Below are positions 3,561 through 61,338 of a stretch of 64,000 nucleotides of DNA, one piece after another. Below the pieces are notes generated by a model, which was not told where the DNA came from, did no database searches, and saw nothing but the letters and a program-made list of their open reading frames with translations. Every line of letters begins with the position of its first letter. The first letter of the stretch is position 1. Source of the DNA: Lunatibacter salilacus (GTDB lineage: Bacteria > Bacteroidota > Bacteroidia > Cytophagales > Cyclobacteriaceae). The DNA lies in the NCBI RefSeq assembly GCF_009797935.1, contig NZ_VOLC01000004.1:192820-256819 (forward strand). The letters run 5' to 3'. Position numbers and translations under genes: made by a program.

Positions 3561-4862
3561 ATGAGAAATATCTATTTGTCCCTCTACTTGATTCTGATTG
3601 GATCCCTGCTTGGTAATTTTGAAGTAAAGGGTCAAGAGTCAACTTTTGTATATGGCGATGCATTGCCGGATGCACCAGAATTGGCATTAAGGGGTGATTT
3701 AACAGTGGGAGTGAGGACGTTGGAGTTTGTAAATAAAGACCAGCTGGATATTAACAATATCCAGGGGGGAACCCCACTGATTTATGACCGCACAATGGTA
3801 GTGGAAGTTTGGTACCCGGCCAAGTCAACAGAAGTTGATAGTTTGACAATTTATGACGATGTGCTAGGCGTGCCGGGGAATCCGAATAGACCTGTGGTTC
3901 CATTTTCATTTTCTGGAAGGGCATCACGGGATGCGGAACCTGATTTGGCCGATGGACCATACCCCTTGTTGATCGTTTCCCATGGTTATTTGGGATCAAG
4001 GTTTTTAATGACGTACCTCACTGAAAATTTAGCTTCCAAAGGGTATGTTGTCGTAGCCATTGACCATCCGGAATCCACCCACCGTAATCCGGGTAAATTT
4101 TCAAGCACCCTATATTATCGCGCACTTGATGATCTCTTTGTTTTAAATCAAATGGCTGCATTGGGAATGCAGGGTACGGACAGCTTTTTGTCGGGTTTAG
4201 TAAACGCCGATATCACCGCATTGATTGGGTATTCGATGGGGGGATACGGGGTACTTAATGCTGCCGGGGCTGGTTACAGTTCACAAACAATGCAAATGTT
4301 TGGTCAACTCACCGGAGGCAGTAAAGTTATTGAGTCTAGAGTCAGCGGTAACGCAGCGTATCAAACCTCTATGGACGAACGGATAAAGGCTATTGTTGCT
4401 TTGGCCCCTTGGGGGATGCAACGTGGCGCATGGGATGCTGAAGGTCTAAAAGGAATCAGAATACCCACTTTTATAGTTGCCGGCGATCAGGATGACGTAT
4501 CCGGCTATGAGGATGGGGTAAAGGCAATATATGAGGGGATAAGCAATGCCGAAAAATATATGCTGGTCTATCAAAATGCCCGCCATAATGTGGCTCCAAA
4601 CCCACCTCCATCTGCTTCCTATGCCCCGGATTTGGATTTGAATGAATACTATCACTATGCGGAGCCCGTTTGGGATCAGCGAAGAATCAACAATATCAAC
4701 CAACATTTCCTGACGGCATTCTTGGGGATAAAGTTGAAAGGGCTCGACTATGGTTCTTTTCTTGACCTCACGAAAGAATCAACGGAAGAAAGCTGGAAAG
4801 GCTTCAAACCAAGAACGTCCATCGGATTGCAGCTTTGGAGAGGCGAACCGGAAAATGATTAG
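3561..4862 (+). CDS. secreted alpha/beta hydrolase (PAF-acetylhydrolase/lipase-like)
   Basis: Signal peptide from ATG 3561 (MRNIYLSLYLILIGSLLG); nucleophile elbow GYSMGG; IVSHGYLGS. Confidence 0.6.
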   Translation: MRNIYLSLYLILIGSLLGNFEVKGQESTFVYGDALPDAPELALRGDLTVGVRTLEFVNKDQLDINNIQGGTPLIYDRTMVVEVWYPAKSTEVDSLTIYDDVLGVPGNPNRPVVPFSFSGRASRDAEPDLADGPYPLLIVSHGYLGSRFLMTYLTENLASKGYVVVAIDHPESTHRNPGKFSSTLYYRALDDLFVLNQMAALGMQGTDSFLSGLVNADITALIGYSMGGYGVLNAAGAGYSSQTMQMFGQLTGGSKVIESRVSGNAAYQTSMDERIKAIVALAPWGMQRGAWDAEGLKGIRIPTFIVAGDQDDVSGYEDGVKAIYEGISNAEKYMLVYQNARHNVAPNPPPSASYAPDLDLNEYYHYAEPVWDQRRINNINQHFLTAFLGIKLKGLDYGSFLDLTKESTEESWKGFKPRTSIGLQLWRGEPEND

Positions 4863-10252: not shown

Positions 10253-10861
10253 ATGAATCGCAAAACGGCTGAAAACGCTGTGAATCTTGAGAAAACACCT
10301 GAGGAGTTATGGGTTGAACTTACGTTGGGGGATAAAAAAGCCTTTGAACAGCTTTACAGAAGGTACATCAACGGTTTGTTCCAACTTGGGATATCTCTTT
10401 GTGGAAATCCGGATTTTGTCCAGGACTGTATTCAAGAGCTTTTTATAGATCTGTGGAAATATAGGCGCAGCATAAAAGAAACTGACAATGTCAAAAGTTA
10501 TTTATTCCGGTCACTTTCGAATAAAATGAATGCTGAAAGGAAAAAGGAGGGAAGGTGGCTCAAAAGGCAGTCCTCTACAGCATTTGCATTATCCAGCCAT
10601 TTGGAGAGTATAGAAACTGAGCTGGTTCATCTGCAACGGGACGAGCAGCTTCAAAAAAAATTAGCATTAGCCCTTAAAAAGCTTCCGGTTAGGCAAAACG
10701 AAATCATCCAATATCTTTTTTTTGAAAACCAGAGTTATGAGGATACGGCCAAGTTGATGGATATAAACCTTCGGTCGGTTTATACGCTTGCTTGGAAAGC
10801 ACTATCAAGTCTTAGGAAAACCATTTATGCGTTGTGTGCCTTTGGTTTTTCAAATTTTTGA
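10253..10861 (+). CDS. ECF-type RNA polymerase sigma-70 factor
   Basis: Region 2 (QELFIDLWKYR) and region 4 HTH (SYEDTAKLMDINLRSVYTLAWKAL); immediately upstream of a FecR gene. Confidence 0.8.
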   Translation: MNRKTAENAVNLEKTPEELWVELTLGDKKAFEQLYRRYINGLFQLGISLCGNPDFVQDCIQELFIDLWKYRRSIKETDNVKSYLFRSLSNKMNAERKKEGRWLKRQSSTAFALSSHLESIETELVHLQRDEQLQKKLALALKKLPVRQNEIIQYLFFENQSYEDTAKLMDINLRSVYTLAWKALSSLRKTIYALCAFGFSNF

Positions 10862-25814: not shown

Positions 25815-26063
25815 GTTGATAGGTCTATGGGTTGATAAGTTGATGAACTCTCTTAGTCTCTCAGTCCCTAAGTCCCTCCGTCCCTCAGTCTCCAAGTAGG
25901 TTGATAGGTTGATAGGTCACAGTCCCTCCGTCCCCATCTCTCAGTCACTGCCGCCTCCCGTCTTCAAACTTCCGTCTCCAAGTAAGATGATGGGTTGATT
26001 AACTCAATAACCTAATAACCTAATAACTTAACTCCCTTAGTCTCTAAGTCCCTCCGTCTCTCA
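25815..26063. repeat. composite short tandem/direct repeat block between convergent genes
   Basis: gttgata(g/a)gt x4; agtccctccgtc(c/t)c x4; aataacct x3. The last agtccctccgtctc copy encodes the C-terminal DGGT-stop of the 1618-aa gene. Confidence 0.5.
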
Positions 26064-29000
26064 TACCATTACTCAACACCTTCTTAATCCCTTCCAGCCC
26101 TTCTACAAAAAGGGACATCTGTCCGATCACCTGAGCCATTCGATCGGAATCGCCAAGTCCGCGGATCCGGTTGTTTTTCACGAAAGTTTCCTTGATGGTT
26201 GTCCATCGATTGGATCGGGTTTCGTCCAGCAGGTTCATCATCTCGAAAAGCTTCAATAAGTTGGACTCTGCATCCGAGGTCAGGGTTTGGGATTCGTTTT
26301 GGTAATGATCTAAAACTAACTGCATAACTTCCTTATCATTCAAAATAGGGACCACTTGGCTGATTAGTTTGTTCATGTCCCGGTACGAACCCTGAAGCTT
26401 AAAGGGTGGCTCAACCCGGTAATCGTCGGCCATTGCCGCGGAGGCAATATATTGGGCATTCACTTGAAGCACCACATCCCTGACCATTATACATTTCCTA
26501 AGGACAGAAAGGCAATCCTGTATTTCCTGCGAAGATAGGTTTCCTTCCAGATTGGGATAGTTGGGATCTTCATTTTCAATAAACTGTACCAATTTGTACA
26601 AATTTTCAATTCCATATTGCGTGAGCGATTTGAGGATAGGGTTGGAGGTAAGGCCATTTTCGATCAAGCTGAGTTTAAATAGGTCTGCCCGGTTGTTAAC
26701 CATATCCCCCAAATTGTAAATATCCGCCCTGTTGGAGAGCATATCCGGAATTTGGAACTTGTCACCGCTTTCGGTGTACGGATTTCCAGCCATTACCACA
26801 CAAAAGCGCTTTCCCCGAAAGTCATAGGTTTTGGATTGTCCATTAAATACACCTTCTATTTTTCGCTGTCCATCTGCTAGTGAAATGAATTTTTGTAAAA
26901 ATTCGGGATTACAGTGCTGAATGTCATCCAGGTAGAGCATGACATTGTCACCCATTTCCAAGGCGAGGTTGAGCTTCTGAAGTTCCTGCCGGGTAGCGGC
27001 ATTACGGGCTTCAGCGGGATCCACAGAAGTGATTTCGTGACCAATGGAAGGTCCATTAATTTTCATAAAGATCAAACCGAGTCTGTCAGCCACATATTCC
27101 ATCAGGGTGGTTTTTCCATAGCCGGGAGGGGAAATCAGCAATAGCATGCCTGATCGGTCAGTGCGTTTGTCGGCGCCAAATGCCCCCATTTGTTTGGCAA
27201 AATTGGTTCCGATAAGCGGCAAATACACTTGGTTAATAAGTTTGTTACGGACAAAAGAAGTCAATACCTGAGTTTGAAATTCATGAAGCCTTAATTCGCT
27301 TTTCTTTTGTTCGATCAGTTGGTGCTTTAATGCCTGAAGCCGTAGATATTTCGGGTGTACTTCTCCTACGAATCGCCTAAGACGAGAGGTGAATTCGTGG
27401 TAGTCGAAATGGTATTTTCCTTCCCCGTCTTCTGAATGTATACCAATGGATTTGACAGATTTTATTTCTTGTTGCGAGGAAATATGCTGCACGTAGTGCG
27501 TATCCGGGCTTTCCATAATCAGGCAAGAAGCGGCTTCTTCAATTATTTCTTCCCTGACTCCTGGCCGCTTTTTAGCTGCTGATGCCTGCATCCATTGTTT
27601 GCACAGGTGCCACTCTGCCGCGGGAAAGTCAGCGAGCCCTTTTTGGGCCTCTAAAAAAGTGGATTCTGAATTTTTCTCCCTTAAGTTTTTTCGAAAATCC
27701 TCCAGAAGTTCCTTTGCTGACCTTTCCAAGATAAATCCATCCGTGGCTTGTTCTACCGCTAAATACTTTGCGGCTTCCAAGGAATCTATTCCTTCCATTA
27801 ATTTATTTTGGACGGAAAATTCCTTTATAGCCTCACTTAAACTTTGGATAAGATGTGTGTATTCTTGGGTATGCTCGAATACCTGCCGCATCAAATTGAC
27901 AAAGACAAATTGCTTTTTGAAATATGCTTTTTTGTCAACATCAACATAATGCCAGAATAATTTAGCCAAGATACGGGTCTTTGCGGGAAATTGTAACAGG
28001 CCTAAATCTTTGGTTTTTTCAATCAGGGTTTGTAAAAGCAGTAGGGCATCCTGATCGTGAACACCTTTAACATACCCCTCGCCATAGTGGTTGGTCATGT
28101 ATTCACTTATTTTCTCTACGAGATCATCTTCGGTGGGAAGATCATTGGGATTCAGCTCTTGAAATACCTTCCATGCAAGATATTCGGCCCGTTGAACATC
28201 TTTGTTTTCGGATGGGAGTTCCTGCTCCCAAACTTCCCGAAGATCATCGATGGCTGCCGCATCCATGGCTTCATAGTATGAAGTGCCAGTAAGATGGTAA
28301 TAATATTGCCTGTCCCTGATTAGAAGGGTAAGGTCCAGTTTTTGGTTATTTACGGCGAAACGAACATCCCCCATCCGAATAATGTTATTTCCATCTTCGT
28401 AGAGTTCTTTTTTATCTTTAAGTGCACGGATTGCCTCCTGCTGCAGCACTTGAAGCTGATTGAGCAAGTCTTCTGATTTTCCGGCGTCATCCAACTGCTG
28501 TAGGTTCTTGGCGGAGTCACGAACTTTGTCAATCATCAGATCTGAGGCAAAGTATCCGTTGATTTCAATTTCAGACTCGAAGGTCGCCGCCTTGGATTGA
28601 ATACCCTTTAGAATTCGCTGACCAGCCGCAAAAAGTGAATTCGTCCTCCTGTTTCGTGCTTCTGTTAGGGAAACTTTTTTGGATTCAAAAGCCGCATATA
28701 CTGCTTCTCTTTTTTCCGTGATCTTATCGATGAACTCATCGAAATCGACAAAACGGCTTTCGAGTTCTTCCAACTGTATGGAGAGTTTTGTCAGGTACTC
28801 GTCACATTTGACGGGATCATTGGCCAGGTCCAGGTAGTTGACTATAGCCTGCTCAAAGAGTGTCAACTGGGCGGAAAAATCGGCCCGAGCCTCCCGTTCC
28901 CCCAGTTGCCGCCGTTTATTGTTAAGTGCTACCCGCTTTTGGTTGAGTTGCGCAAAAATGACCGATATGTTTTCTATGATCTGAGTGCTGTGGGAGGTAT

Positions 29001-30900
29001 CTTCTACTTTTAGGTTGTTAACAATTTCTATCAACAGCTCCAACTGACGGGAAAGTTCGTCAAAGTCCTTTTCAAGATTTTTTACATCAATTACTTTAGT
29101 AAGTTTTTGGACTTCGGTTCCCAGATAGTCCATACGCTCCTGATAGTAGGAAAGTGCATTTTCCTGCAATAAAAACTGCACACAAGCATCCGCCAAATCG
29201 TCTGCTCGGCTAGCTATACTTTCTTCCAGTTTGGCCACGGCCTCCATGTCAATGTACCGGAGGCTTTTCAGCCCAATAATCTCCCCACGGAGCTTGCGTA
29301 ACTTGGAAAGCAAAGAAACATATTCCTCTAATGTGTCATAACTAGCTCTACGGGTATCAAACAAAATTTTATTCACATCAGTGGTAGCCTTTTCAAGGTT
29401 TTCCGTTGTGTTTTTTCGAATTTGAACTACCTTTTCAAACTCATCTATTGCCGACAGGGCAATTTCTTTTACCTGCTGCAAGGGCTCATGGAGACTGCCA
29501 GCCCGCTGGTTATTGAGCCAGAAGTAGCCGTCCGTAATGCTTTGGCTCTTTCGTTGGATATCCTCATACAACCCATCGTAACTGTCCTCTTTGGTAAGCA
29601 AAACAATCAATTCCTGTATTTCAGCCATGGCCCTTACAATGGGCCTATTACCTATTTTATACAGTTCATGGTTTTTGAATGCCTCATTGGGGATTAATTC
29701 CTTGGAATAAGGCGTTTGCCAGATTTGGATAAGATGGTGTTTACTCGGTGCGATTTCCGTATTGAAATAGCACAGCTCCCCATTTCCAAATAACGTGTAT
29801 CCATTGCAGAAAATCGGAGTCTTTACAGTCTGCTCAATAACGTTATAAGAAAGTATGACGAAATCATGATTCTTTTCTTCATAAAAAACAAACAAAAAAT
29901 CCTCCCCATTGGGAGATTGGATTTTCCGAAGGAATTTTACGCCTTCAATTTTCCTGTCAAATAGTTTGTATTCACCTGTCTGCAGGTAATAGCCATTCGA
30001 AAGGATAATTCCCTGATCATCGGGTAGCAGAATTCCCGCATCCTTAAGGGTATCTACGCGGATCACATTTTTGATGCGGTGGTTGAATATAAAAAAACGG
30101 TCGCTTTCCAAATAGGGACGGATCTTCAGAAGAACTAAATTTCCCAAATCACAAAAGTGGATTTCCGCATCATCCAGCGATTGATCCCTTTGGTCCACTT
30201 CTTCTTGGTAGATCCCCTGACCGTTATCTGTGTTATCTTCCACTTTGATGGTGAGGTCACCTCCCAATGTCTCTACGAAGACTTTGTCCGCAATGGAAAC
30301 GTGTGGATTCTTGCCGACTCGCTGCATATCCCGTGTGGCTTTAGTCCAAGTAAATTCATGTTGAGGGGGAAATCGTACGTCGGCAGCACTTCTGGAATCA
30401 ACATAGATTAGTTTTTCACCGTCAATAAGCCACTTAAATGCTTTGATATCAGACGGGCTGTCTGAAAGCTGAAAAACAAAGTACAGGTAATTCAGATGGA
30501 TGGTAAATCTGGAAAATTGCGTGTTCCTGTAGAATTTATACAGGTTTTGAAGTTCGTTGGCAAACTCAGAATCTGATAGGATATCGATAGGAGCATGGTG
30601 AAACTCGTGGTCTTGGAAATGATACACACTGAAGACATCGGGAATTTCCAAGGTGGACTTGAGCCCCAGCCTTACATTGTATCCTAAAAGGCAAATGTTT
30701 CCAACCGACACAATGTCCCTGGCTACGCAGTTATGGTCGGTACTGATCCGTACATTGGAAAGCAGCTTAAAATCCACAGCCCCGAAAATCTGCTGACGTT
30801 CCTTGTTCAGGGTTTGAATCCTCGTGAGAAGTTCTTGGCGTTGGTGCTGAAGCCGTTGTTGAATGATTTCATAAGTACCCCTTTCGATCGTATTATCCAT
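26044..30900 (-). CDS. 1618-aa coiled-coil protein with C-terminal MoxR/AAA_5-like AAA+ ATPase domain; function unknown
   Basis: Residues ~1-400 are beta-rich and globular; ~450-830 are a heptad-rich coiled coil. Walker A SPPGYGKTT is at 27106-27123 (checked on the DNA), Walker B MLYLDD at 26923-26937, sensor-1 VVMAGNP, and MLSNRAD (MoxR LxxRF-like). It is the last gene of the PspA/flotillin operon. Confidence 0.7.
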   Translation of the reverse strand: MDNTIERGTYEIIQQRLQHQRQELLTRIQTLNKERQQIFGAVDFKLLSNVRISTDHNCVARDIVSVGNICLLGYNVRLGLKSTLEIPDVFSVYHFQDHEFHHAPIDILSDSEFANELQNLYKFYRNTQFSRFTIHLNYLYFVFQLSDSPSDIKAFKWLIDGEKLIYVDSRSAADVRFPPQHEFTWTKATRDMQRVGKNPHVSIADKVFVETLGGDLTIKVEDNTDNGQGIYQEEVDQRDQSLDDAEIHFCDLGNLVLLKIRPYLESDRFFIFNHRIKNVIRVDTLKDAGILLPDDQGIILSNGYYLQTGEYKLFDRKIEGVKFLRKIQSPNGEDFLFVFYEEKNHDFVILSYNVIEQTVKTPIFCNGYTLFGNGELCYFNTEIAPSKHHLIQIWQTPYSKELIPNEAFKNHELYKIGNRPIVRAMAEIQELIVLLTKEDSYDGLYEDIQRKSQSITDGYFWLNNQRAGSLHEPLQQVKEIALSAIDEFEKVVQIRKNTTENLEKATTDVNKILFDTRRASYDTLEEYVSLLSKLRKLRGEIIGLKSLRYIDMEAVAKLEESIASRADDLADACVQFLLQENALSYYQERMDYLGTEVQKLTKVIDVKNLEKDFDELSRQLELLIEIVNNLKVEDTSHSTQIIENISVIFAQLNQKRVALNNKRRQLGEREARADFSAQLTLFEQAIVNYLDLANDPVKCDEYLTKLSIQLEELESRFVDFDEFIDKITEKREAVYAAFESKKVSLTEARNRRTNSLFAAGQRILKGIQSKAATFESEIEINGYFASDLMIDKVRDSAKNLQQLDDAGKSEDLLNQLQVLQQEAIRALKDKKELYEDGNNIIRMGDVRFAVNNQKLDLTLLIRDRQYYYHLTGTSYYEAMDAAAIDDLREVWEQELPSENKDVQRAEYLAWKVFQELNPNDLPTEDDLVEKISEYMTNHYGEGYVKGVHDQDALLLLQTLIEKTKDLGLLQFPAKTRILAKLFWHYVDVDKKAYFKKQFVFVNLMRQVFEHTQEYTHLIQSLSEAIKEFSVQNKLMEGIDSLEAAKYLAVEQATDGFILERSAKELLEDFRKNLREKNSESTFLEAQKGLADFPAAEWHLCKQWMQASAAKKRPGVREEIIEEAASCLIMESPDTHYVQHISSQQEIKSVKSIGIHSEDGEGKYHFDYHEFTSRLRRFVGEVHPKYLRLQALKHQLIEQKKSELRLHEFQTQVLTSFVRNKLINQVYLPLIGTNFAKQMGAFGADKRTDRSGMLLLISPPGYGKTTLMEYVADRLGLIFMKINGPSIGHEITSVDPAEARNAATRQELQKLNLALEMGDNVMLYLDDIQHCNPEFLQKFISLADGQRKIEGVFNGQSKTYDFRGKRFCVVMAGNPYTESGDKFQIPDMLSNRADIYNLGDMVNNRADLFKLSLIENGLTSNPILKSLTQYGIENLYKLVQFIENEDPNYPNLEGNLSSQEIQDCLSVLRKCIMVRDVVLQVNAQYIASAAMADDYRVEPPFKLQGSYRDMNKLISQVVPILNDKEVMQLVLDHYQNESQTLTSDAESNLLKLFEMMNLLDETRSNRWTTIKETFVKNNRIRGLGDSDRMAQVIGQMSLFVEGLEGIKKVLSNGMRDGGT

Positions 30901-30985
30901 AGCAGATTAAACGTGAAAATGAAAAAAACTCTTTAAAGTGGGAGAGGATTAAATTCCCTCCCCCGGAAAATTCCTATTTAAAATT

Positions 30986-33016
30986 TTAGGACAATTTCCT
31001 GTTTTCTATTCCCATGGATTTGGCCATATCCATCAACCCTGCCAAAAAACCTCGGTCCTCCTCCGAAGCGGTTATTTGGAGCTGACCAATCAATGCGGCA
31101 ATGGATAGATTTTTGACATCAGAGGTGGTGATGCCATACTTATCTGCAACTCGTTTGACCTTTGCAATAAGGTCGCTATTTTCTCCAGATTCTCCATTGC
31201 CATTACTGAGCAGTGCTCCTTTAAACTGGCTAATAGTATTGGAATTCTCTACCAATTTATCGATTCCCTTTCCATTTGAAACCTGACGAATCACATTTTC
31301 AAAGAAGGTATTATCACCACCCACAATATCGATTTTCGCTGATTTGAAGGCTTCTGCCAATACCTTGGCCTGAGCGTCGGCGATGTCTTTTTGTATTCCA
31401 ATTTGGGCTAATTCCACTTCTTTTTCCTTTTGCAAATGAAGACGGAATTCCTCGTGTTCTTTGCCCGCATCATTTAGCTGCTTCATGGCAGTTGCCTTTT
31501 CCTGAATTCCCTTGGCCTCCGCAACGGCTTTTTCTTGAATGACCTCTGCCTCTGCCAAGCCTTCCTTTCGTTTGGCCTCTGCTATTCGTTCAATCACAAC
31601 AGCATCAACTGTGCCTTGTCTTTCGAGGGCATCTGCTTTCGCATGCATCACTTGCGCCTCCGAAAGCCCTATGGCAGCCTCTTCCTTGGCTATAGCTTCA
31701 GCTATGATTTTCCGAGCTTCGGCATCTTTATCAGCCGCATCTTTTCGTGCTCCAGCTTCAATGATGATTTTTTGAGCTTCAAATTTGGCAGATTTCTCCT
31801 TGGCTTCTGCGGATTTGACCTCTTCGATCAGGTTCACCTCCGCAGCTTTGGAAGCGATTATCAAAGCCACTTCTTTTTGTCTTCCCGCCTCTTTTAAGGC
31901 TTCTACATCTTTTATCTTTTCTTTTTCCTCGACCACGGTTTTTTCCATGGCTACCCGTTCCCTAATGGCATCCTGGATGTTTTTCTTCTCCAATTCTACC
32001 GCTTTCTCTTTTTCAATTTGTGCAAGTTCTACTACCCGCTCTCTTTCAGTGGCCTCGATGTCCCTATCCTTCTGTACCCGCTCGGTTTCCACCGCTTCTG
32101 CGCGCTCTTTATTCTTGAGTGCGATAATAACCTGCCGCTGCTTATTCTCCTCCTGTATCTGTAGCTGCTCTTCCGTGCGTATCCTAACTTCCTCTGATTT
32201 CAGTCGCTCCAAAGAAGAAACCTTGTCTATTTCAGCCTGCTCTCGTGCTTTTATGGTTTCTATCTCACGACGTTGAGACTCTTCTTTCTCTTTGAGTTGC
32301 TTCTCCAGTTCCAGAATGGCTTCCCGGGCTTCGACATCCTGTTTCTTTATAATCTTTTCTTCATCCCTGCGGATTAGATTGGCCTTGATGTTTTGGGCTG
32401 CGGTAAGTTCAGTGATTTTTTTGATGCCTTCTGCATCCAGAATATTATTTGAATCCAAGTTTTCTACCTTGGTTTGCTCCAGGTAATCAATGGCACAATC
32501 ATCCAGCACGTACCCATTTAAGTCAGTTCCGATAATGTCAATGATTTCATTCCTGAATTCCCTTCGGGCTTCATAGAGTTCGATAAATTCAAATTTTTTC
32601 CCAACGGTTTTGAGTGCTTCAGAGAATTTGGCCTCAAACAAGCTTTCCAAGGTTTCATGGTCTGATGCACGGGCACAACCTATGGTTTGGGCTACATTGA
32701 TGATATCCTGTACGGATTTGTTTACCCGTACAAAGAAGGCTACCTTGATGTCCGCCCGCATATTGTCCTTGCAGATCAGACCGTCTTTGGCCATTCTGGA
32801 AATATCCAGCTTCTTAACTGAAATATCCATGATTTCCTGTTTGTGAAGAATAGGGACTACAAGTCCCGCATTAAAAAAGATCTTTACTCCGCCTTGCCCG
32901 GTCCGCACCAGAACCCGGCCTTGGCTCACTTTTTTGTACATGGAGATGAGCCACATGAGCAGCCCTAGCAGCACAATCATTCCGAATATGGCCACTGTGT
33001 AAAAAGATTCCGTCAT
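30986..33016 (-). CDS. flotillin-like SPFH/band-7 protein (YqiK type)
   Basis: N-terminal TM helix; SPFH domain; ~330-aa E/K/A-rich coiled coil (AEAKEK.., EKEKAVELEK..); YqiJ-like gene 12 bp upstream. Confidence 0.85.
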   Translation of the reverse strand: MTESFYTVAIFGMIVLLGLLMWLISMYKKVSQGRVLVRTGQGGVKIFFNAGLVVPILHKQEIMDISVKKLDISRMAKDGLICKDNMRADIKVAFFVRVNKSVQDIINVAQTIGCARASDHETLESLFEAKFSEALKTVGKKFEFIELYEARREFRNEIIDIIGTDLNGYVLDDCAIDYLEQTKVENLDSNNILDAEGIKKITELTAAQNIKANLIRRDEEKIIKKQDVEAREAILELEKQLKEKEESQRREIETIKAREQAEIDKVSSLERLKSEEVRIRTEEQLQIQEENKQRQVIIALKNKERAEAVETERVQKDRDIEATERERVVELAQIEKEKAVELEKKNIQDAIRERVAMEKTVVEEKEKIKDVEALKEAGRQKEVALIIASKAAEVNLIEEVKSAEAKEKSAKFEAQKIIIEAGARKDAADKDAEARKIIAEAIAKEEAAIGLSEAQVMHAKADALERQGTVDAVVIERIAEAKRKEGLAEAEVIQEKAVAEAKGIQEKATAMKQLNDAGKEHEEFRLHLQKEKEVELAQIGIQKDIADAQAKVLAEAFKSAKIDIVGGDNTFFENVIRQVSNGKGIDKLVENSNTISQFKGALLSNGNGESGENSDLIAKVKRVADKYGITTSDVKNLSIAALIGQLQITASEEDRGFLAGLMDMAKSMGIENRKLS

Positions 33017-33028
33017 TTTTTCCTTGGT

Positions 33029-33652
33029 TTATGGTTGATACTTTTGTGCAAAATAAAATTTCTTATCCGGCGATTCCTCAAGTATGATCACCGTGTCTCC
33101 GTATGCAATCGCATCGTCGTCGATCGATTTGGCATATACTTTTAGTACATCGTCCCCGAAGAGTATATCGATCTGACCCATTTTATCCTTACTCATGGGA
33201 ATGACTACCCGGCCCACTTTTCCAATAAAGTCAATAGGTAGTTCTCCCTTGTGATTAAAAACCGCATACAGCTTCACAAAGGGCTTGGCGACTACTTTGG
33301 TGATGAGCATGCTGACGACAAATCCCGGAAGATATACCAAGAACCCCAGAATATTGTCTGAAATGCCAAGTAGGGCAGTAACGTTCACATTGATAAGCCA
33401 CATACTAAATACGACTAGGGTGATGATGAACATCACAGGCAACTCCCCAATGTAGAAAAACTCCCAAACCGCTGACCAAAAGCCCTGACCTTCCACATTT
33501 CCCACATCGGCACTATTGACGTCTGCGTCTGCATCCAGATCCAGGTCAAGCCCGGTAAAGATGATGACAATCCAATATAATACCACCACTAACATTAATA
33601 GCGTAAGGATAAAGTTTGCAGGCGCAAAAGAGATGTCTATTAATTTTTCCAT
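33029..33652 (-). CDS. YqiJ/NfeD-like (DUF1449-type) membrane protein with C-terminal OB-fold
   Basis: 207 aa; DLDLDADADV acidic stretch; two or three TM helices; C-terminal beta-rich segment (GKVGRVVIPM...GQIDILFGD). The arrangement matches E. coli yqiJ-yqiK. Confidence 0.55.
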   Translation of the reverse strand: MEKLIDISFAPANFILTLLMLVVVLYWIVIIFTGLDLDLDADADVNSADVGNVEGQGFWSAVWEFFYIGELPVMFIITLVVFSMWLINVNVTALLGISDNILGFLVYLPGFVVSMLITKVVAKPFVKLYAVFNHKGELPIDFIGKVGRVVIPMSKDKMGQIDILFGDDVLKVYAKSIDDDAIAYGDTVIILEESPDKKFYFAQKYQP

Positions 33653-33736
33653 GGAAATACCAATTTGAAAGGGTAAGAGATGGGAGAGTTACACCGATAC
33701 CAGGTTTGTTCAGGTGTGGGATTACGATAAATTAGC

Positions 33737-34432
33737 CTATTCCATACCCATCTGCTTTTTTAGTTGGGCCAGTTCATCTTCTACGGTCAAGTCCTCTAGC
33801 GTTTTCTTGAGTTTCTCATCGTGGGATTGGTTGGCATTGGCCATTTCACCGTATGCTTCCGCCAATGCTTCATCTTGAACCACTTTTTCTTTCATACGTT
33901 CCAGCATTGCCACCACCCCAGTGCTGTCCATATTGGTCATCTGTTTGTTGATTTTTTCTGTGGCACTGCTTACTTTGATTCGCGCCTTCAGAGTCCGAAG
34001 TTCGTTCTCCCACTGCTGTATGCCCGCTTTAATTCTACTGAGATTTTGTTCCAGAGTGCCTACCTGCTTCTCCAAATTTGACACTTCGTCCCTGATTAGA
34101 AGAATTTCCTGGGCCACTTGGGCTTTGCGTTTGAGATTTCCTTTGACAAGGTTTTCAGCTTCTTGGGTCTCAAGTTCTCCTTGTTGGGATTTTTTAAGAA
34201 GCAAAACCGATTTGTTTTGAAGGTCCTCTTCAAGTATTTCATTTTCTTTAAGATCCTTTGACCTACGGATATGCATTGCTTTTACTTCAGCCAGAGCCCT
34301 GAGGGCTTTGTCCTGATTGTCCCTCATATCCCGGAGTCCCTGTTCGATCATATTGATGGGGTCTTCCAGTTTGTCGATGGCCGAATGGGTTTCAGCCTGA
34401 CCTATTTTGAATAATCTTTTCAGCACGTTCAT
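33737..34432 (-). CDS. PspA/IM30 family protein (phage-shock protein A / Vipp1-like, ESCRT-III superfamily)
   Basis: MNVLKRLFKIGQAETHSAIDKLEDPINMIEQGLRDMRDNQDKA matches the PspA N-terminus (cf. MGIFSRF..EDPQKLV..QEMEDTL); all-helical coiled coil; 231 aa. Confidence 0.8.
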   Translation of the reverse strand: MNVLKRLFKIGQAETHSAIDKLEDPINMIEQGLRDMRDNQDKALRALAEVKAMHIRRSKDLKENEILEEDLQNKSVLLLKKSQQGELETQEAENLVKGNLKRKAQVAQEILLIRDEVSNLEKQVGTLEQNLSRIKAGIQQWENELRTLKARIKVSSATEKINKQMTNMDSTGVVAMLERMKEKVVQDEALAEAYGEMANANQSHDEKLKKTLEDLTVEDELAQLKKQMGME

Positions 34433-34448
34433 ATCTTTTGTGTTTTAA

Positions 34449-34838
34449 TTATTTTGAAAAGGATAATATTTCATTGGAATATTCGGATAGCAAGAGACCC
34501 AGGGAATTGATCGTTCCTTCCAACTCCTTCAAGTCCAGTGTCTCTACCTGTAATGTGTTTCGGAAAATGACCTTTTCTCCTTTCTCGTCCAGAACGAAGG
34601 CACCATGTACAATGTCTCTGTTTTTTATCAACAGGTGTCTGAAAATATCGGGATCATCGGTGACATCGAAGAGGTACTGTTCTATAATGACAATGGGTGT
34701 TGCCACTCCAATGACCATGTTTTTTACGCCCATTTCCTCATTGTCGATGACCAATAAATTGTCTGAGGTGTTTTCATATAATAACCCATAGCCCAGTTCC
34801 ATGACAAAATCTCTGACTTTCTTAAAATAATGATCCAT
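34449..34838 (-). CDS. YbjN/YjfI(DUF2170)-like small cytoplasmic protein
   Basis: 129 aa; alternating beta/alpha pattern typical of the YbjN family; first gene of the operon, 16 bp before pspA (cf. E. coli yjfI-yjfJ). Confidence 0.4.
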   Translation of the reverse strand: MDHYFKKVRDFVMELGYGLLYENTSDNLLVIDNEEMGVKNMVIGVATPIVIIEQYLFDVTDDPDIFRHLLIKNRDIVHGAFVLDEKGEKVIFRNTLQVETLDLKELEGTINSLGLLLSEYSNEILSFSK

Positions 34839-34918
34839 ATGCGGGATAATTTAAAGTTGTTAAAAGTTAGGATACTGCGATTAATCACTTCACAAGTATA
34901 AAAAAAGAAGAAATAAAA

Positions 34919-34959
34919 TGCAAATAAAATTAGCATTTATTTTGCTAATTTTATTTGCA
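34919..34959. promoter_or_regulatory. perfect 17-bp inverted repeat (TGCAAATAAAATTAGCA-N7-TGCTAATTTTATTTGCA), probable operator
   Basis: Read directly from the sequence. It lies 32 bp upstream of the XRE regulator ATG (34991) and ~80 bp upstream of the divergent operon start (34838). Confidence 0.6.
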
Positions 34960-34990
34960 AAGCCTAATTTTGTTTCAAATAGTAACGGTT

Positions 34991-35626
34991 ATGTCAAAAT
35001 TCGGGAAAAATATAAAGAAGATCAGAAATGTGCGCGGCTTGACTCAAGCGCAGTTGGCCGAAATGATTGAAGTAAATAGGGGTGTTGTTTCTTCTTACGA
35101 GGAGGGCAGGGCTGAACCTAAAATTGAGACCATTATAAAAACCGCGGAGGTATTTCAACTATCGATTGATCTTTTGCTCAAGAGTAGCGTCACTGTAAAT
35201 CAGTTAAGTGGGTTTGCCCTGCCGGAGATTGCCAAGGGTAAAGGAGAAGTTCAAAAGCTACCGGAAAATAGGCAGACGGTATTTGATTTTTTACCAAAAG
35301 GCACTGTGGGAATTTCATGCAGGGACATAGAACCTAGCACTTATATAAAGAAAGCCGAGACCATTTTAGCGGCCCCGGCAAAAGCTGTAGTGGGAAAGCT
35401 TATGCTGATTCAATCCGAAGGGAAGAAGTATTTGGGCAAAGTCACGGCGGTAAATGCCAATGAAATTAGCTTGGATAATTTAGATAGGATATTACATCAG
35501 CCAAGCTTGATGTTGGAGGTTATGGGGATTTATTCTCCAATCCAACAGATAAGCCCTTTGGAAGAAAGGGTACTTCAGCTAGAGAATCGATTGGATCAGC
35601 TAGAAGTAAAGCTGCGGGAAATCTAA
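34991..35626 (+). CDS. XRE-family helix-turn-helix transcriptional regulator with C-terminal coiled-coil/unknown domain
   Basis: MSKFGKNIKKIRNVRGLTQAQLAEMIEVNRGVVSSYEEG is a canonical XRE HTH; C-terminal leucine-zipper-like LEERVLQLENRLDQLEVKL. The ORF-track start at 34955 is TTG; the ATG at 34991 is preferred. Confidence 0.75.
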   Translation: MSKFGKNIKKIRNVRGLTQAQLAEMIEVNRGVVSSYEEGRAEPKIETIIKTAEVFQLSIDLLLKSSVTVNQLSGFALPEIAKGKGEVQKLPENRQTVFDFLPKGTVGISCRDIEPSTYIKKAETILAAPAKAVVGKLMLIQSEGKKYLGKVTAVNANEISLDNLDRILHQPSLMLEVMGIYSPIQQISPLEERVLQLENRLDQLEVKLREI

Positions 35627-43853: not shown

Positions 43854-44633
43854 ATGATCAAACCAACCCCCGATACCCTGCTTACCGATCCCCGCCTGCC
43901 GCAGCTTACCCAACACCCAGACCAGTATACAGAAGAAGACCTTCAGGTGTGGAAGCTGCTTTTTGAACGCCAATATAAGTACCTACCTAAGGCTGCATCG
44001 AAGGTGTATTTGGAAGGATTGGAGGCCATTGGGTTTACCGCTGACCAAATACCGGATTTTGCCGATGTCGACCGTAGACTAGGCATGATGACCGGATGGT
44101 CGGTTCAGGTAGTCTATGGTCTTATTGATGACGATCTTTTCTTTGGTTTGCTAAACCATCGGCGTTTCCCCGCCTCTACATGGCTCCGTAAGATGGAGGC
44201 GCTTGACTATTTGCAGGAACCGGACATGTTCCATGATGCCTTTGCCCACCTTCCCCTGTTGACAAATGCTGCCTATACGGGTTATATGGAGGACTTAGCA
44301 GGTATTGCGCTCCGATATATGGACAATCCGCTAGCAATTGATTTGCTGTCACGGATCTATTGGTTTACTGTGGAATTTGGGCTGATCCGAGAGGATGGCG
44401 AACTGCGGGTGTACGGTGCTGGAATTATCAGTTCGGCAGGCGAAACCAAATTCAGCCTCTCCGACGAACCCAAGCACTTGGACTATGATGTCAGCCTGAT
44501 CCTAAACACGCCCTATTGGAAAAACAAGTTTCAGGACAGGTACTTTATCATAGACAGCTTTGAGCAACTGTATGACTCTATCCCGGAGATCAGTCGGCAG
44601 TTGGAGGTTGAGTTGGAGAGAGACGAATTGTAA
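43854..44633 (+). CDS. phhA: phenylalanine 4-hydroxylase (monomeric bacterial aromatic amino acid hydroxylase)
   Basis: EPDMFHDAFAHLPLL (iron-binding His pair), GWSVQVVYGL, YWFTVEFGL. Confidence 0.85.
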   Translation: MIKPTPDTLLTDPRLPQLTQHPDQYTEEDLQVWKLLFERQYKYLPKAASKVYLEGLEAIGFTADQIPDFADVDRRLGMMTGWSVQVVYGLIDDDLFFGLLNHRRFPASTWLRKMEALDYLQEPDMFHDAFAHLPLLTNAAYTGYMEDLAGIALRYMDNPLAIDLLSRIYWFTVEFGLIREDGELRVYGAGIISSAGETKFSLSDEPKHLDYDVSLILNTPYWKNKFQDRYFIIDSFEQLYDSIPEISRQLEVELERDEL

Positions 44634-44690
44634 ATTACGAATTACGAATTACGTATTATGAATCGTAATTCGTAATTCGTAATTCGTAAT
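44633..44690. repeat. heptamer microsatellite palindrome (AATTACG)x3 ... (CGTAATT)x3-4 forming a ~21-bp stem hairpin
   Basis: Read directly: aattacgaattacgaattacg-tattatgaat-cgtaattcgtaattcgtaattcgtaat, immediately after the phhA stop. Confidence 0.6.
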
Positions 44691-44823
44691 CATAACCAAA
44701 CAATCATCCCCCGTGAAAGTAAATTAAATTCCAATTTCCTCGGTCAACGGGCGAAAAACAGTAAATTAGCGGCCTGAATGGGAGAAGGCGTGGCAAAATC
44801 CGGCTTTTCCGACATACTAAACC

Positions 44824-45408
44824 ATGAATGTAGCCGTAATCAAATACAACGCCGGCAATGTGCAGTCGGTACTTTATGCACTGGAAAGGCTGGGGGCAAA
44901 TGCCTCGCTGACAGACGACTGGGAGACTATAAAGAATGCCGATAGGGTCATCTTTCCCGGACAGGGAGAAGCAAGCACTGCTATGAGTTACCTTAAGGCC
45001 CGGAAACTGGATCAGTTGATTCAAGAATTGAAGCAACCCTTTTTGGGCATTTGCCTTGGTCTGCAGCTTCTCTGCGATCATTCCGAAGAAAATGATACTC
45101 CCTGCTTGGGTATCTTTCCCGTGCAGGTAAAGAAGTTTCCTCCCTACGACAAGGTACCCCATATAGGGTGGAACAACCTGGAAAACCTAAAATCACCGCT
45201 TTTGGAAGGCTTGGACGAAACGGCTTATGCCTATTATGTGCATAGCTTTTATGCGGAGATTCATCCCGATTACACCATTGCTACAGCGCATTATATGCTG
45301 GATTTCAGTGCCCTGCTGCATAGAGACAACTACTACGCTATGCAGGCCCATCCTGAAAAGAGTAGCACGGCCGGGGAAAAAATATTGACCAACTTTCTGA
45401 ATATATAA
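44824..45408 (+). CDS. hisH: imidazole glycerol phosphate synthase, glutamine amidotransferase subunit
   Basis: GICLGLQLL catalytic Cys, HIGWN, class-I GATase pattern. Confidence 0.9.
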   Translation: MNVAVIKYNAGNVQSVLYALERLGANASLTDDWETIKNADRVIFPGQGEASTAMSYLKARKLDQLIQELKQPFLGICLGLQLLCDHSEENDTPCLGIFPVQVKKFPPYDKVPHIGWNNLENLKSPLLEGLDETAYAYYVHSFYAEIHPDYTIATAHYMLDFSALLHRDNYYAMQAHPEKSSTAGEKILTNFLNI

Positions 45409-61298: not shown

Positions 61299-61338
61299 AA
61301 AGCCTTATCCTTCCATCTTGAAGGATAAGGCTTTTTTT
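61299..61338 (+). terminator. rho-independent terminator
   Basis: AAAGCCTTATCCTT-ccatcttg-AAGGATAAGGCTTT followed by TTTTT; 14-bp stem 17 nt after the stop. Confidence 0.7.

Follow-up and report, generated by a model that had tools for sequence, protein, structure and literature searches.

A palindromic candidate operator between an XRE-type regulator gene and a divergent PspA operon in Lunatibacter salilacus

The palindrome and its 17-bp unit

The 64,000-nucleotide stretch of the Lunatibacter salilacus contig NZ_VOLC01000004.1 analyzed here (the window) carries a 41-bp palindrome at positions 34919-34959. It is located in the 152-bp spacer (34839-34990) that separates an XRE-type regulator gene from a divergently transcribed CesT_Tir_1 gene belonging to a presumed five-gene operon that also encodes PspA. 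The palindrome is made up of TGCAAATAAAATTAGCA, the 7-bp spacer TTTATTT, and TGCTAATTTTATTTGCA, in this order (Table 1), and its 3' edge is separated from the regulator ATG (34991) by 31 nucleotides (nt). A first-pass annotation of this DNA had claimed a perfect 17-bp inverted repeat exactly there, and this is borne out: the arms are complementary at 17/17 positions, and TTTATTT has no symmetry of its own. The longest perfect arms arising by chance measured 8-11 nt when the 64-kb window was simulated 30 times with a first-order Markov model, and 8-15 nt in 50 simulations of 6.4 kb at the AT-rich composition of this spacer. Since the 17-nt arms exceed these maxima, a chance origin is not credible. 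The reading that we propose below is that the palindrome is probably the operator region of the neighbouring regulator, a protein of the XRE/CI-like type, which would use it to shut off the promoters of both flanking transcription units.

Each arm also agrees with its own reverse complement at 12/17 positions (TGCwAAT-N3-ATTwGCA). As the arms are individually pseudo-palindromic, the 41-mer can be read as two sites for protein dimers, designated O1 and O2, whose centres are 24 bp apart. Within each of them, the half-sites are one helical turn apart (~10 bp), which fits a single helix-turn-helix (HTH) dimer, whereas 41 bp exceeds the span of any dimer. The palindrome most likely comprises two adjacent 17-bp dimer sites, predicted to accommodate a dimer of dimers. 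The earlier proposal of one site for a dimeric HTH protein is therefore retained as far as the operator is concerned, but the single site for a single dimer gives way to two 17-bp dimer sites. Among related loci, the conserved unit is the 17-mer TGCAAAT-N3-(A/T)TTAGCA rather than the whole 41-mer. O1 of Marivirga is the perfect palindrome TGCAAATAtTATTTGCA, and Chryseobacterium and Flavobacterium possess a single strong 17-mer plus a degenerate copy ~20 nt upstream of the ATG.

The perfect 41-bp symmetry is confined to the Lunatibacter clade. O1 and O2 differ from each other at 2-5 positions in the loci L001, L003, and L007, while in L083 position 8 of O1 and the spacer have changed without any compensating change in O2. 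This uncompensated change argues against selection for a hairpin and agrees with a protein-binding site whose centre is degenerate. A hairpin could be functional by itself, either as an AT-rich terminator or insulator that stops minus-strand transcripts reading through antisense to the regulator gene, or as a supercoiling-sensing cruciform. Indeed, the 17-bp stem and 7-nt loop, followed by TTTTATTTCT, are called as terminator-like on the minus strand, the single-stranded DNA fold reaches -16.1 kcal/mol (z = -5.8 versus shuffles), and the symmetry includes base positions that vary in other taxa. However, G-C pairs account for only 4/17 of the stem, the element lies between two divergent inferred start sites where no gene ends, most lineages keep one 17-mer without a hairpin, L083 breaks the pairing, and the region 34700-35200 returns no Rfam family at the gathering score (sub-threshold noise only). 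We regard such a role as quite improbable and, at best, lineage-restricted. The identity of the arms at non-contact positions may result from a recent inverted duplication or from homogenisation.

Conservation and locus specificity of the 17-mer

A profile search of species-representative genomes with the regulator recovered 80 loci. In ~70 of them, the regulator gene diverges from homologues of the CesT, PspA, 207-residue, and 676-residue proteins of the window, and the gene order is kept, with the XRE gene opposite CesT-PspA-NfeD-like-flotillin-like-AAA+. This divergent layout occurs in Cyclobacteriaceae, Marivirga, Cryomorphaceae/Schleiferiaceae, Niabella, Chryseobacterium, Flavobacterium, Aquimarina, and Polaribacter. 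The 17-mer, written as TGCAAA[AT]-N3-NTNNGC[AT], is present in 72 of the 73 syntenic intergenic regions, the most frequent variants being TGCAAATATTTTTAGCA, TGCAAATATTATTAGCA, and TGCAAATAAAATTAGCA. We aligned the spacers of 14 taxa, comprising Lunatibacter-type taxa, two loci from metagenome-assembled genomes (MAGs), Anditalea, Pararhodonellum, and Marivirga. The invariant columns of this alignment are the half-sites TGCAAAT and T..GC of O1, the half-sites TG.TAAT and T..TTTGCA of O2, and an ACAA belonging to a promoter box described below, while the rest drifts. In a comparison of four taxa whose regulators are 80-82% identical, variable positions number 0/41 in the palindrome versus 21/111 in the remaining spacer (Fisher p = 0.001). 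The predicted regulator-operator pairing is kept throughout the phylum Bacteroidota. Within the collection, L001 and L002 come from separate contigs of a single MAG (Bacteroidetes bacterium DLM2.Bin11), each being a whole regulator-operon locus; they closely resemble each other without being identical, and strain mixture or duplication is possible. L018, from a contig labelled as an Acinetobacter pittii MAG, has an upstream region nearly identical to that of Niabella L013 and is probably a binning contaminant.

The site is specific to this locus. Over the syntenic loci, a relaxed core of the 17-mer is found 73 times in 11.8 kb of spacers and 59 times in 46.6 kb of regulator genes, versus once in 491 kb of other DNA. 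In the 64-kb window, the operator core TGCNAATNNNATTNGC gives five strand-matches at three places (O1, O2, and 35455), with 0.07 expected. A near-match at 10650-10666, TTCAAAAAAAATTAGCA, was judged to be due to chance because its left TGC is missing and the surrounding stretch reads as coding (sigma-factor-like, from its translation by eye). A scan of metagenome contigs for the exact 17-mer returned at least 120 matching stretches; among those listed, 27 have an XRE, CesT, or PspA homologue at most 700 bp away. In viral contigs, 0/17 matches to the 17-mer adjoin a homologue of the regulator, CesT, or PspA, and a phage origin was rejected. The 110 unlinked matches among those listed are each single, 70 of them are located within long open frames, and no recurrent neighbour was found among them. 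The first-pass annotation had accepted that a palindrome recurring at many unrelated loci would be a generic repeat; over the window, the syntenic loci, and the listed metagenome and viral matches, the site proves to be locus-specific and not dispersed, the unlinked matches having no recurrent context.

That the palindrome represents a dispersed repeat, such as a repetitive extragenic palindrome or the end of a miniature inverted-repeat transposable element, or a sigma-54 promoter as in E. coli psp, is barely credible. An AT-rich intergenic palindrome would suit a repeat, but the window holds no further copies, and the listed unlinked matches described above are single and mostly in coding frames. 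As for sigma-54, on which E. coli pspA depends according to the account of psp systems in PMC11237479, a PspF-type promoter (-24 GG and -12 GC boxes, TGGCAC-N5-TTGC) was rejected on the sequence: the GG that never varies in the -24 box is missing, and TGC-N11-GCA exceeds the GG-N10-GC spacing by 2 nt. Moreover, no enhancer-binding protein is encoded beside the operon, and the adjacent regulator is devoid of an AAA+ sigma-54 activator domain.

Contrary to the first-pass annotation, which had called the palindrome the only such element in the window, further inverted repeats occur at 44623-44690 and 61299-61334. The former consists of tandem ATTACGA heptamers followed by inverted copies, which yield arms of 21-28 nt, and sits between the convergent open reading frames 43854-44633 (+) and 44704-45162 (-); a microsatellite may have given rise here to a bidirectional terminator. 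The latter, AAAGCCTTATCCTTC / GAAGGATAAGGCTTT, is an inverted repeat with perfect 15-nt arms around a 6-nt loop, and has a terminator-like look.

Promoter register and copies within coding sequences

Bacteroidota sigma-A promoters exhibit TAnnTTTG at -12 to -5 and TTTG near -33, ~19-21 nt further upstream (PMC7366714, PMC9723704). Judged by these consensus boxes, both transcription units flanking the palindrome possess such a predicted promoter. That of the operon combines the -7 box TATACTTG with a -33 TTTG (34921-34924, minus strand) located 20 nt away within the left half of O1. Its start site would fall at ~34888, with O1 spanning about -31 to -47. The regulator promoter combines the -7 box TAATTTTG with a TTTG 21 nt upstream (34941-34944), which covers the end of the spacer and positions 34943-34944 of O2. 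Its start site would fall at ~34978, and O2, lying between the -33 TTTG and the -7 box, would span about -35 to -19. Close relatives keep TAATTTTG, TATTTTTG, or TAAATTTG as the regulator -7 box, and short intergenic regions, with few exceptions, have a minus-strand TAnnTTTG-like box 19-20 nt away from the O1 TTTG. The lone O1 of Chryseobacterium and Flavobacterium is flanked by two divergent -7 boxes, that of the operon being typically TATATTTG. A sigma-70 promoter scan, with a tool not designed for Bacteroidota, picks the same minus-strand pair (TTTGCA-18-TATACT).

The Aquimarina-type loci (L054, L064, L067, L070, L073, L075, L079, and L080) have a ~325-bp spacer with several sites (~3680-4000), including TGCTAAAAATTTTAGTA at ~155 nt upstream of the ATG and a perfect TGCAAATAAAATTAGCA at 20 nt upstream. 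The regulator that they encode comprises 252 residues with a fuller pseudo-S24 domain. In these loci, the perfect 17-mer starts 5 nt after a TATTTTTG box, and therefore covers the regulator start site; Chryseobacterium and Flavobacterium have a degenerate equivalent at this position. Positions between the two boxes of a promoter, or overlapping its start site, are repressive ones and, together with the near-consensus boxes, favour repression of both promoters. The idea put forward in the first-pass annotation, an operator for the adjacent XRE regulator within a shared promoter region, thus receives strong comparative support from the occurrence in 72/73 spacers, from the conserved island formed by the palindrome, from the 19-20-nt register, and from the non-dispersed nature of the site, and we retain it as a prediction.

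A third copy of the site, O3 (TGCCAATGAAATTAGCT), is found within the regulator gene, its centre being 512 bp from that of O2 and 536 bp from that of O1. It is the sole TGCNAATNNNATTNGC match besides O1 and O2 in the window. A comparison of five sister taxa shows a single invariant run of at least 14 nt in the 636-nt regulator gene. It covers nt 463-482 and spans O3, in the less conserved C-terminal half of the gene (49% invariant), where neighbouring synonymous positions vary. In L001 and L002, the amino acids encoded by O3 are changed and its core positions are retained. Most other lineages likewise possess operator-like 17-mers within the regulator gene, at lineage-specific positions: ~+305 to +326 in Chryseobacterium and Flavobacterium, +261 in two Cryomorphaceae, +153 in the Aquimarina-type genes, and straddling the stop codon in Anditalea and Pararhodonellum. 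The Chryseobacterium and Flavobacterium site, TGCAAAAAATATT(A/T)GCA, codes for LQKIL/FA. This LQKILA island lies in a hypervariable linker, and its third codon positions have near-zero entropy over 44 Chryseobacterium and Flavobacterium genes. The first base of its Leu codon, just outside the motif, varies freely, so that the edge of conservation falls within a codon. Conservation bounded by the motif and not by codons indicates a constraint at the DNA level. These intragenic copies are best explained as auxiliary operators, which would act through DNA looping or as a roadblock. They are the most interesting by-product of this analysis, and show, in a clear example from nature, how a DNA-binding motif can limit the choice of synonymous codons. 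In the Flavobacterium-type loci L028, L051, L066 (3689-3705), and L068 (3690-3706), an operator-like TGCAAAAATAATCAGCA is found within the CesT-like gene, suggesting that the main operator may have auxiliary sites on either side.

The intragenic copies also bear on the possibility that the 17-mer is bound by another factor, such as a global regulator, or is a mere extended promoter element, the XRE protein acting elsewhere. TTTGCA does overlap the -33 motif, and the link between protein and site is drawn from comparison. However, the site travels with the regulator gene across families and is essentially absent from the 491 kb of flanks, the intragenic copies have no adjoining promoter boxes (35420-35500 in the window), and the dyad symmetry with ~10-bp half-site spacing fits an HTH dimer. 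We consider this explanation highly improbable.

The regulator and its proposed mode of action

A sequence search retrieved a Lunatibacter salilacus protein with 100% identity to the regulator. Pfam analysis reports HTH_3 (PF01381; 51.4 bits for a cut-off of 23, residues 8-62), and this domain above its gathering score, together with a palindromic candidate operator near its own gene, places the protein in the XRE/Cro-CI family. NCBIfam returns HTH families below threshold only, the best being RstR (62.7 bits for a cut-off of 80). PADLOC analysis, which was used to look for a defence system, reports only generic HTH matches ('Control_protein') and weak coiled-coil noise, and this assignment was rejected. 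The DNA-reading part of the regulator, SSYEEGRAEPKIET, is nearly invariant across the family, matching the invariant 17-mer. In the AlphaFold2 model (predicted local distance difference test score of 79.5), residues 3-73 form an HTH domain of five to six helices. A disordered linker (76-96) leads to a beta domain of seven strands (106-181), which is followed by a C-terminal helix whose leucines recur in heptads (189-210). Over its full length, the model is matched best by Foldseek to the lambda-186 hybrid repressor, 186 CI, and lambda CI, with template modelling (TM) scores of 0.27-0.46 that are low because the linker is flexible. The HTH domain alone superposes on P22 c2, SinR, and C.AhdI with root-mean-square deviations of 1.2-1.6 Å.

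The beta domain is related to inactive S24 domains. Pfam does not report Peptidase_S24 (PF00717) in the regulator of the window, but longer homologues carry this domain, with Glu and Arg aligned where LexA has S119 and K156. The strand that bears the S24 Ser is not alignable in the 211-residue form. With the Ser and Lys replaced in the homologues and the Ser strand not alignable here, self-cleavage is not expected. The regulator is CI-like in architecture and almost certainly non-self-cleaving. Among the hallmarks of the self-cleaving LexA/lambda CI class, it retains the tandem 17-7-17 operator layout and is devoid of the S24 Ser-Lys dyad.

The sequence of the palindrome, its conservation, its register to the promoter boxes, and its locus specificity were observed directly. 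In the mechanism that we propose, the binding protein, its stoichiometry, the choice of repression over activation, the looping, and the inducing signal are deduced from sequence. The regulator would occupy O1, over the -33 element of the operon promoter, and O2, between the -33 and -7 boxes of its own promoter, probably as a cooperative dimer of dimers held together by the beta domain and the C-terminal helix. With O1 and O2 occupied, both promoters would be blocked, leaving the operon off and the regulator self-limiting. O3, ~0.5 kb away, would probably strengthen repression via DNA looping or as a roadblock. The signal for release is presumably membrane stress, acting by a route other than self-cleavage.

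A serious, if rather unlikely, alternative is a dual switch, in which the regulator at O1 activates the PspA operon in a class II-like manner by overlapping the -33 element, while O2 (and O3) represses its own promoter. Lambda CI acts in this way at PRM, as a class II-type activator. Two adjacent dimer sites also serve restriction-modification (R-M) controller proteins, first in activation and then in repression, and the HTH matches include folds of such proteins. ClgR, the actinobacterial Cro-like HTH protein linked to pspA, is known as an activator. Several further points weigh against repression of both promoters or against the operator as such. The centre of O1 lies at ~-39 from the inferred operon start, close to the position of a class II activator; in Chryseobacterium and Flavobacterium, O1 is centred at ~-38 relative to one of the divergent start sites and at ~-41 relative to the other. 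Both start sites of the window are placed from consensus boxes only. The conservation of TGCAAAT could stem in part from the -33 element itself, the Lunatibacter-clade symmetry reaches positions variable elsewhere to an extent that protein contacts alone are insufficient to explain, and, in this clade, a conserved peptide (A-N-x-I) is encoded by O3 as well. Finally, the -33 motif is reported to be weak or undetectable in Flavobacterium (PMC7366714), and the gene neighbourhoods described in PMC11237479 include clgR encoded with pspA in Actinobacteria.

On the other side, the -7 and -33 boxes of the operon promoter are near-consensus at canonical spacing, and perfect in many taxa, so that an activator should not be needed. 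Since the -33 TTTG is inside an O1 half-site, sigma factor and regulator would compete, and the start-site position in Aquimarina-type loci and the promoter-spacer position of O2 are repressive ones. We thus prefer repression of both promoters by the regulator bound at O1 and O2.

More tentatively, the data might describe a phylum-wide switch, in which a CI-like pseudo-protease repressor acts on two promoter-proximal operators and on an auxiliary operator in its own coding sequence. The latter would be kept by selection on synonymous sites, re-invented at different codons in each lineage, and would loop the DNA into a tight, self-limiting off state; we hold this broader picture to be possible but doubtful. 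In kind, the predicted element is an ordinary autoregulated operator of the XRE/CI type, newly defined for a Bacteroidota-wide PspA module. The conserved regulator-operator pair offers a concrete handle on when this module switches on, and the 17-mer permits regulon prediction across Bacteroidota.

The presumed target operon comprises five genes on one strand (Table 1). Ravi et al. (2024) describe an operon type with CesT/Tir and PspA, a protein with a transmembrane segment and band-7/flotillin domains, a novel AAA+ ATPase, and a YqiJ/YuaF-like protein (PMC11237479), so that, going by that description, the type has already been catalogued through comparative genomics. In the window, CesT_Tir_1, PspA, and DUF3686/AAA are matched by Pfam, and the 676- and 207-residue proteins were assigned by inspecting their sequences. 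The description of this operon type in PMC11237479 does not mention a regulator for it, and our literature search found nothing on DUF3686 or on an XRE regulator, operator, or inducing signal of this operon. The gene context given in the first-pass annotation holds for the HTH_3 regulator and the divergent operon with PspA and DUF3686/AAA genes, but its 'flotillin', the 676-residue protein, is not recognized as such by Pfam. Neither this protein nor the 207-residue one has a Pfam match even at E = 5, and a sequence search of the PDB gave no name for them. The transmembrane, SPFH-like, and coiled-coil sequence of the 676-residue protein and the published operon type agree with a flotillin, with which it is only consistent. 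Of the operon proteins compared, the 676-residue one shows the highest conservation, with 64-85% identity across the phylum.

Table 1. Coordinates of the features discussed (window positions, unless a locus is named)
Feature	Position	Strand	Description
O1	34919..34935	.	17-bp pseudo-palindrome TGCAAAT-AAA-ATTAGCA; phylum-wide conserved unit
Spacer O1/O2	34936..34942	.	7-bp AT spacer TTTATTT, asymmetric; varies among relatives
O2	34943..34959	.	Second 17-bp operator (predicted), exact reverse complement of O1
Regulator	34991..35626	+	211 residues; HTH_3, disordered linker, small beta domain, C-terminal leucine-rich helix
O3 (candidate auxiliary operator)	35455..35471	.	TGCCAATGAAATTAGCT, codons N-A-N-E-I-S, nt 465-481 of regulator gene
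Intragenic TGCAAAAAATATT(A/T)GCA site	4326-4342 (L015, L019, L022 and others); 4320-4336 (L036, L037, L043 and others)		
Operon promoter -7 box (inferred)	34893..34900	-	TATACTTG, 7/8 to TAnnTTTG; conserved ACAA, fixed spacing
Regulator promoter -7 box (inferred)	34966..34973	+	TAATTTTG, perfect TAnnTTTG
Presumed target operon	26044..34838	-	Five genes, one strand, gaps of 12-85 nt
CesT/Tir-like	34449-34838	-	CesT_Tir_1 (Pfam)
PspA	33737-34432	-	Pfam
NfeD/YqiJ-like membrane protein	33029-33652	-	207 residues; transmembrane, NfeD-like tail, by eye
676-residue protein	30986-33016	-	Transmembrane, SPFH-like, long coiled-coil sequence, by eye
DUF3686/DUF7902/AAA+ protein	26044-30900	-	1618 residues

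Comparison with known systems

The closest parallel in layout is provided by phage lambda, whose OR1 and OR2 are 17-bp pseudo-symmetric operators with a 7-bp AT-rich spacer and centres 24 bp apart, located between the divergent promoters PR and PRM. Similarly, the 17-7-17 sites of the window lie between divergent inferred promoters, one of which would drive the regulator gene. The regulator shares with lambda CI an N-terminal HTH of the Cro/CI type and a C-terminal S24-like domain for oligomerisation, and the distant extra operator suggests looping. In contrast with lambda CI, the locus is chromosomal with no surrounding prophage genes, and the presumed target is a membrane-stress operon. Furthermore, relatives have other residues in place of the S24 Ser and Lys, the initial half of this domain is either absent or diverged here, an additional leucine-rich helix is found at the C-terminus, the promoters are of the Bacteroidota type, and the overall fold similarity is weak (TM scores of 0.27-0.46).

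The C-boxes of the R-M controller proteins C.AhdI, C.Esp1396I, and C.BclI are ~35-bp dyads upstream of the controller's own gene, made up of two adjacent palindromic dimer sites bound by a tetramer. The XRE-type HTH fold matches and the PADLOC 'Control_protein' matches bring the regulator close to this group. However, C proteins are single-domain proteins of ~80 residues linked to R-M genes, whereas the regulator has 211 residues with three further segments and a different motif. According to the window annotation and Pfam, no R-M genes are found near the regulator, its neighbours being CesT/PspA and a lipase, and it thus falls outside the class of small, R-M-linked controllers.

A dedicated transcription factor gene beside pspA is also found in the ClgR-PspA arrangement of Actinobacteria and the PspF-PspA arrangement of Proteobacteria. 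PspF differs in being a sigma-54 enhancer-binding AAA+ protein, and ClgR in being short and co-transcribed with pspA; the operator motif and the regulator architecture match neither of them. Lastly, intragenic auxiliary operators are known from lac (O2 in lacZ) and gal (OI in galE), and, like these, O3 is an operator-like site that lies in coding DNA, some hundreds of bp away from the main operator. Unlike them, O3 resides in the gene of the regulator itself, and the position of its counterparts depends on the lineage (+153, +261, ~+320, +465, or the stop codon).

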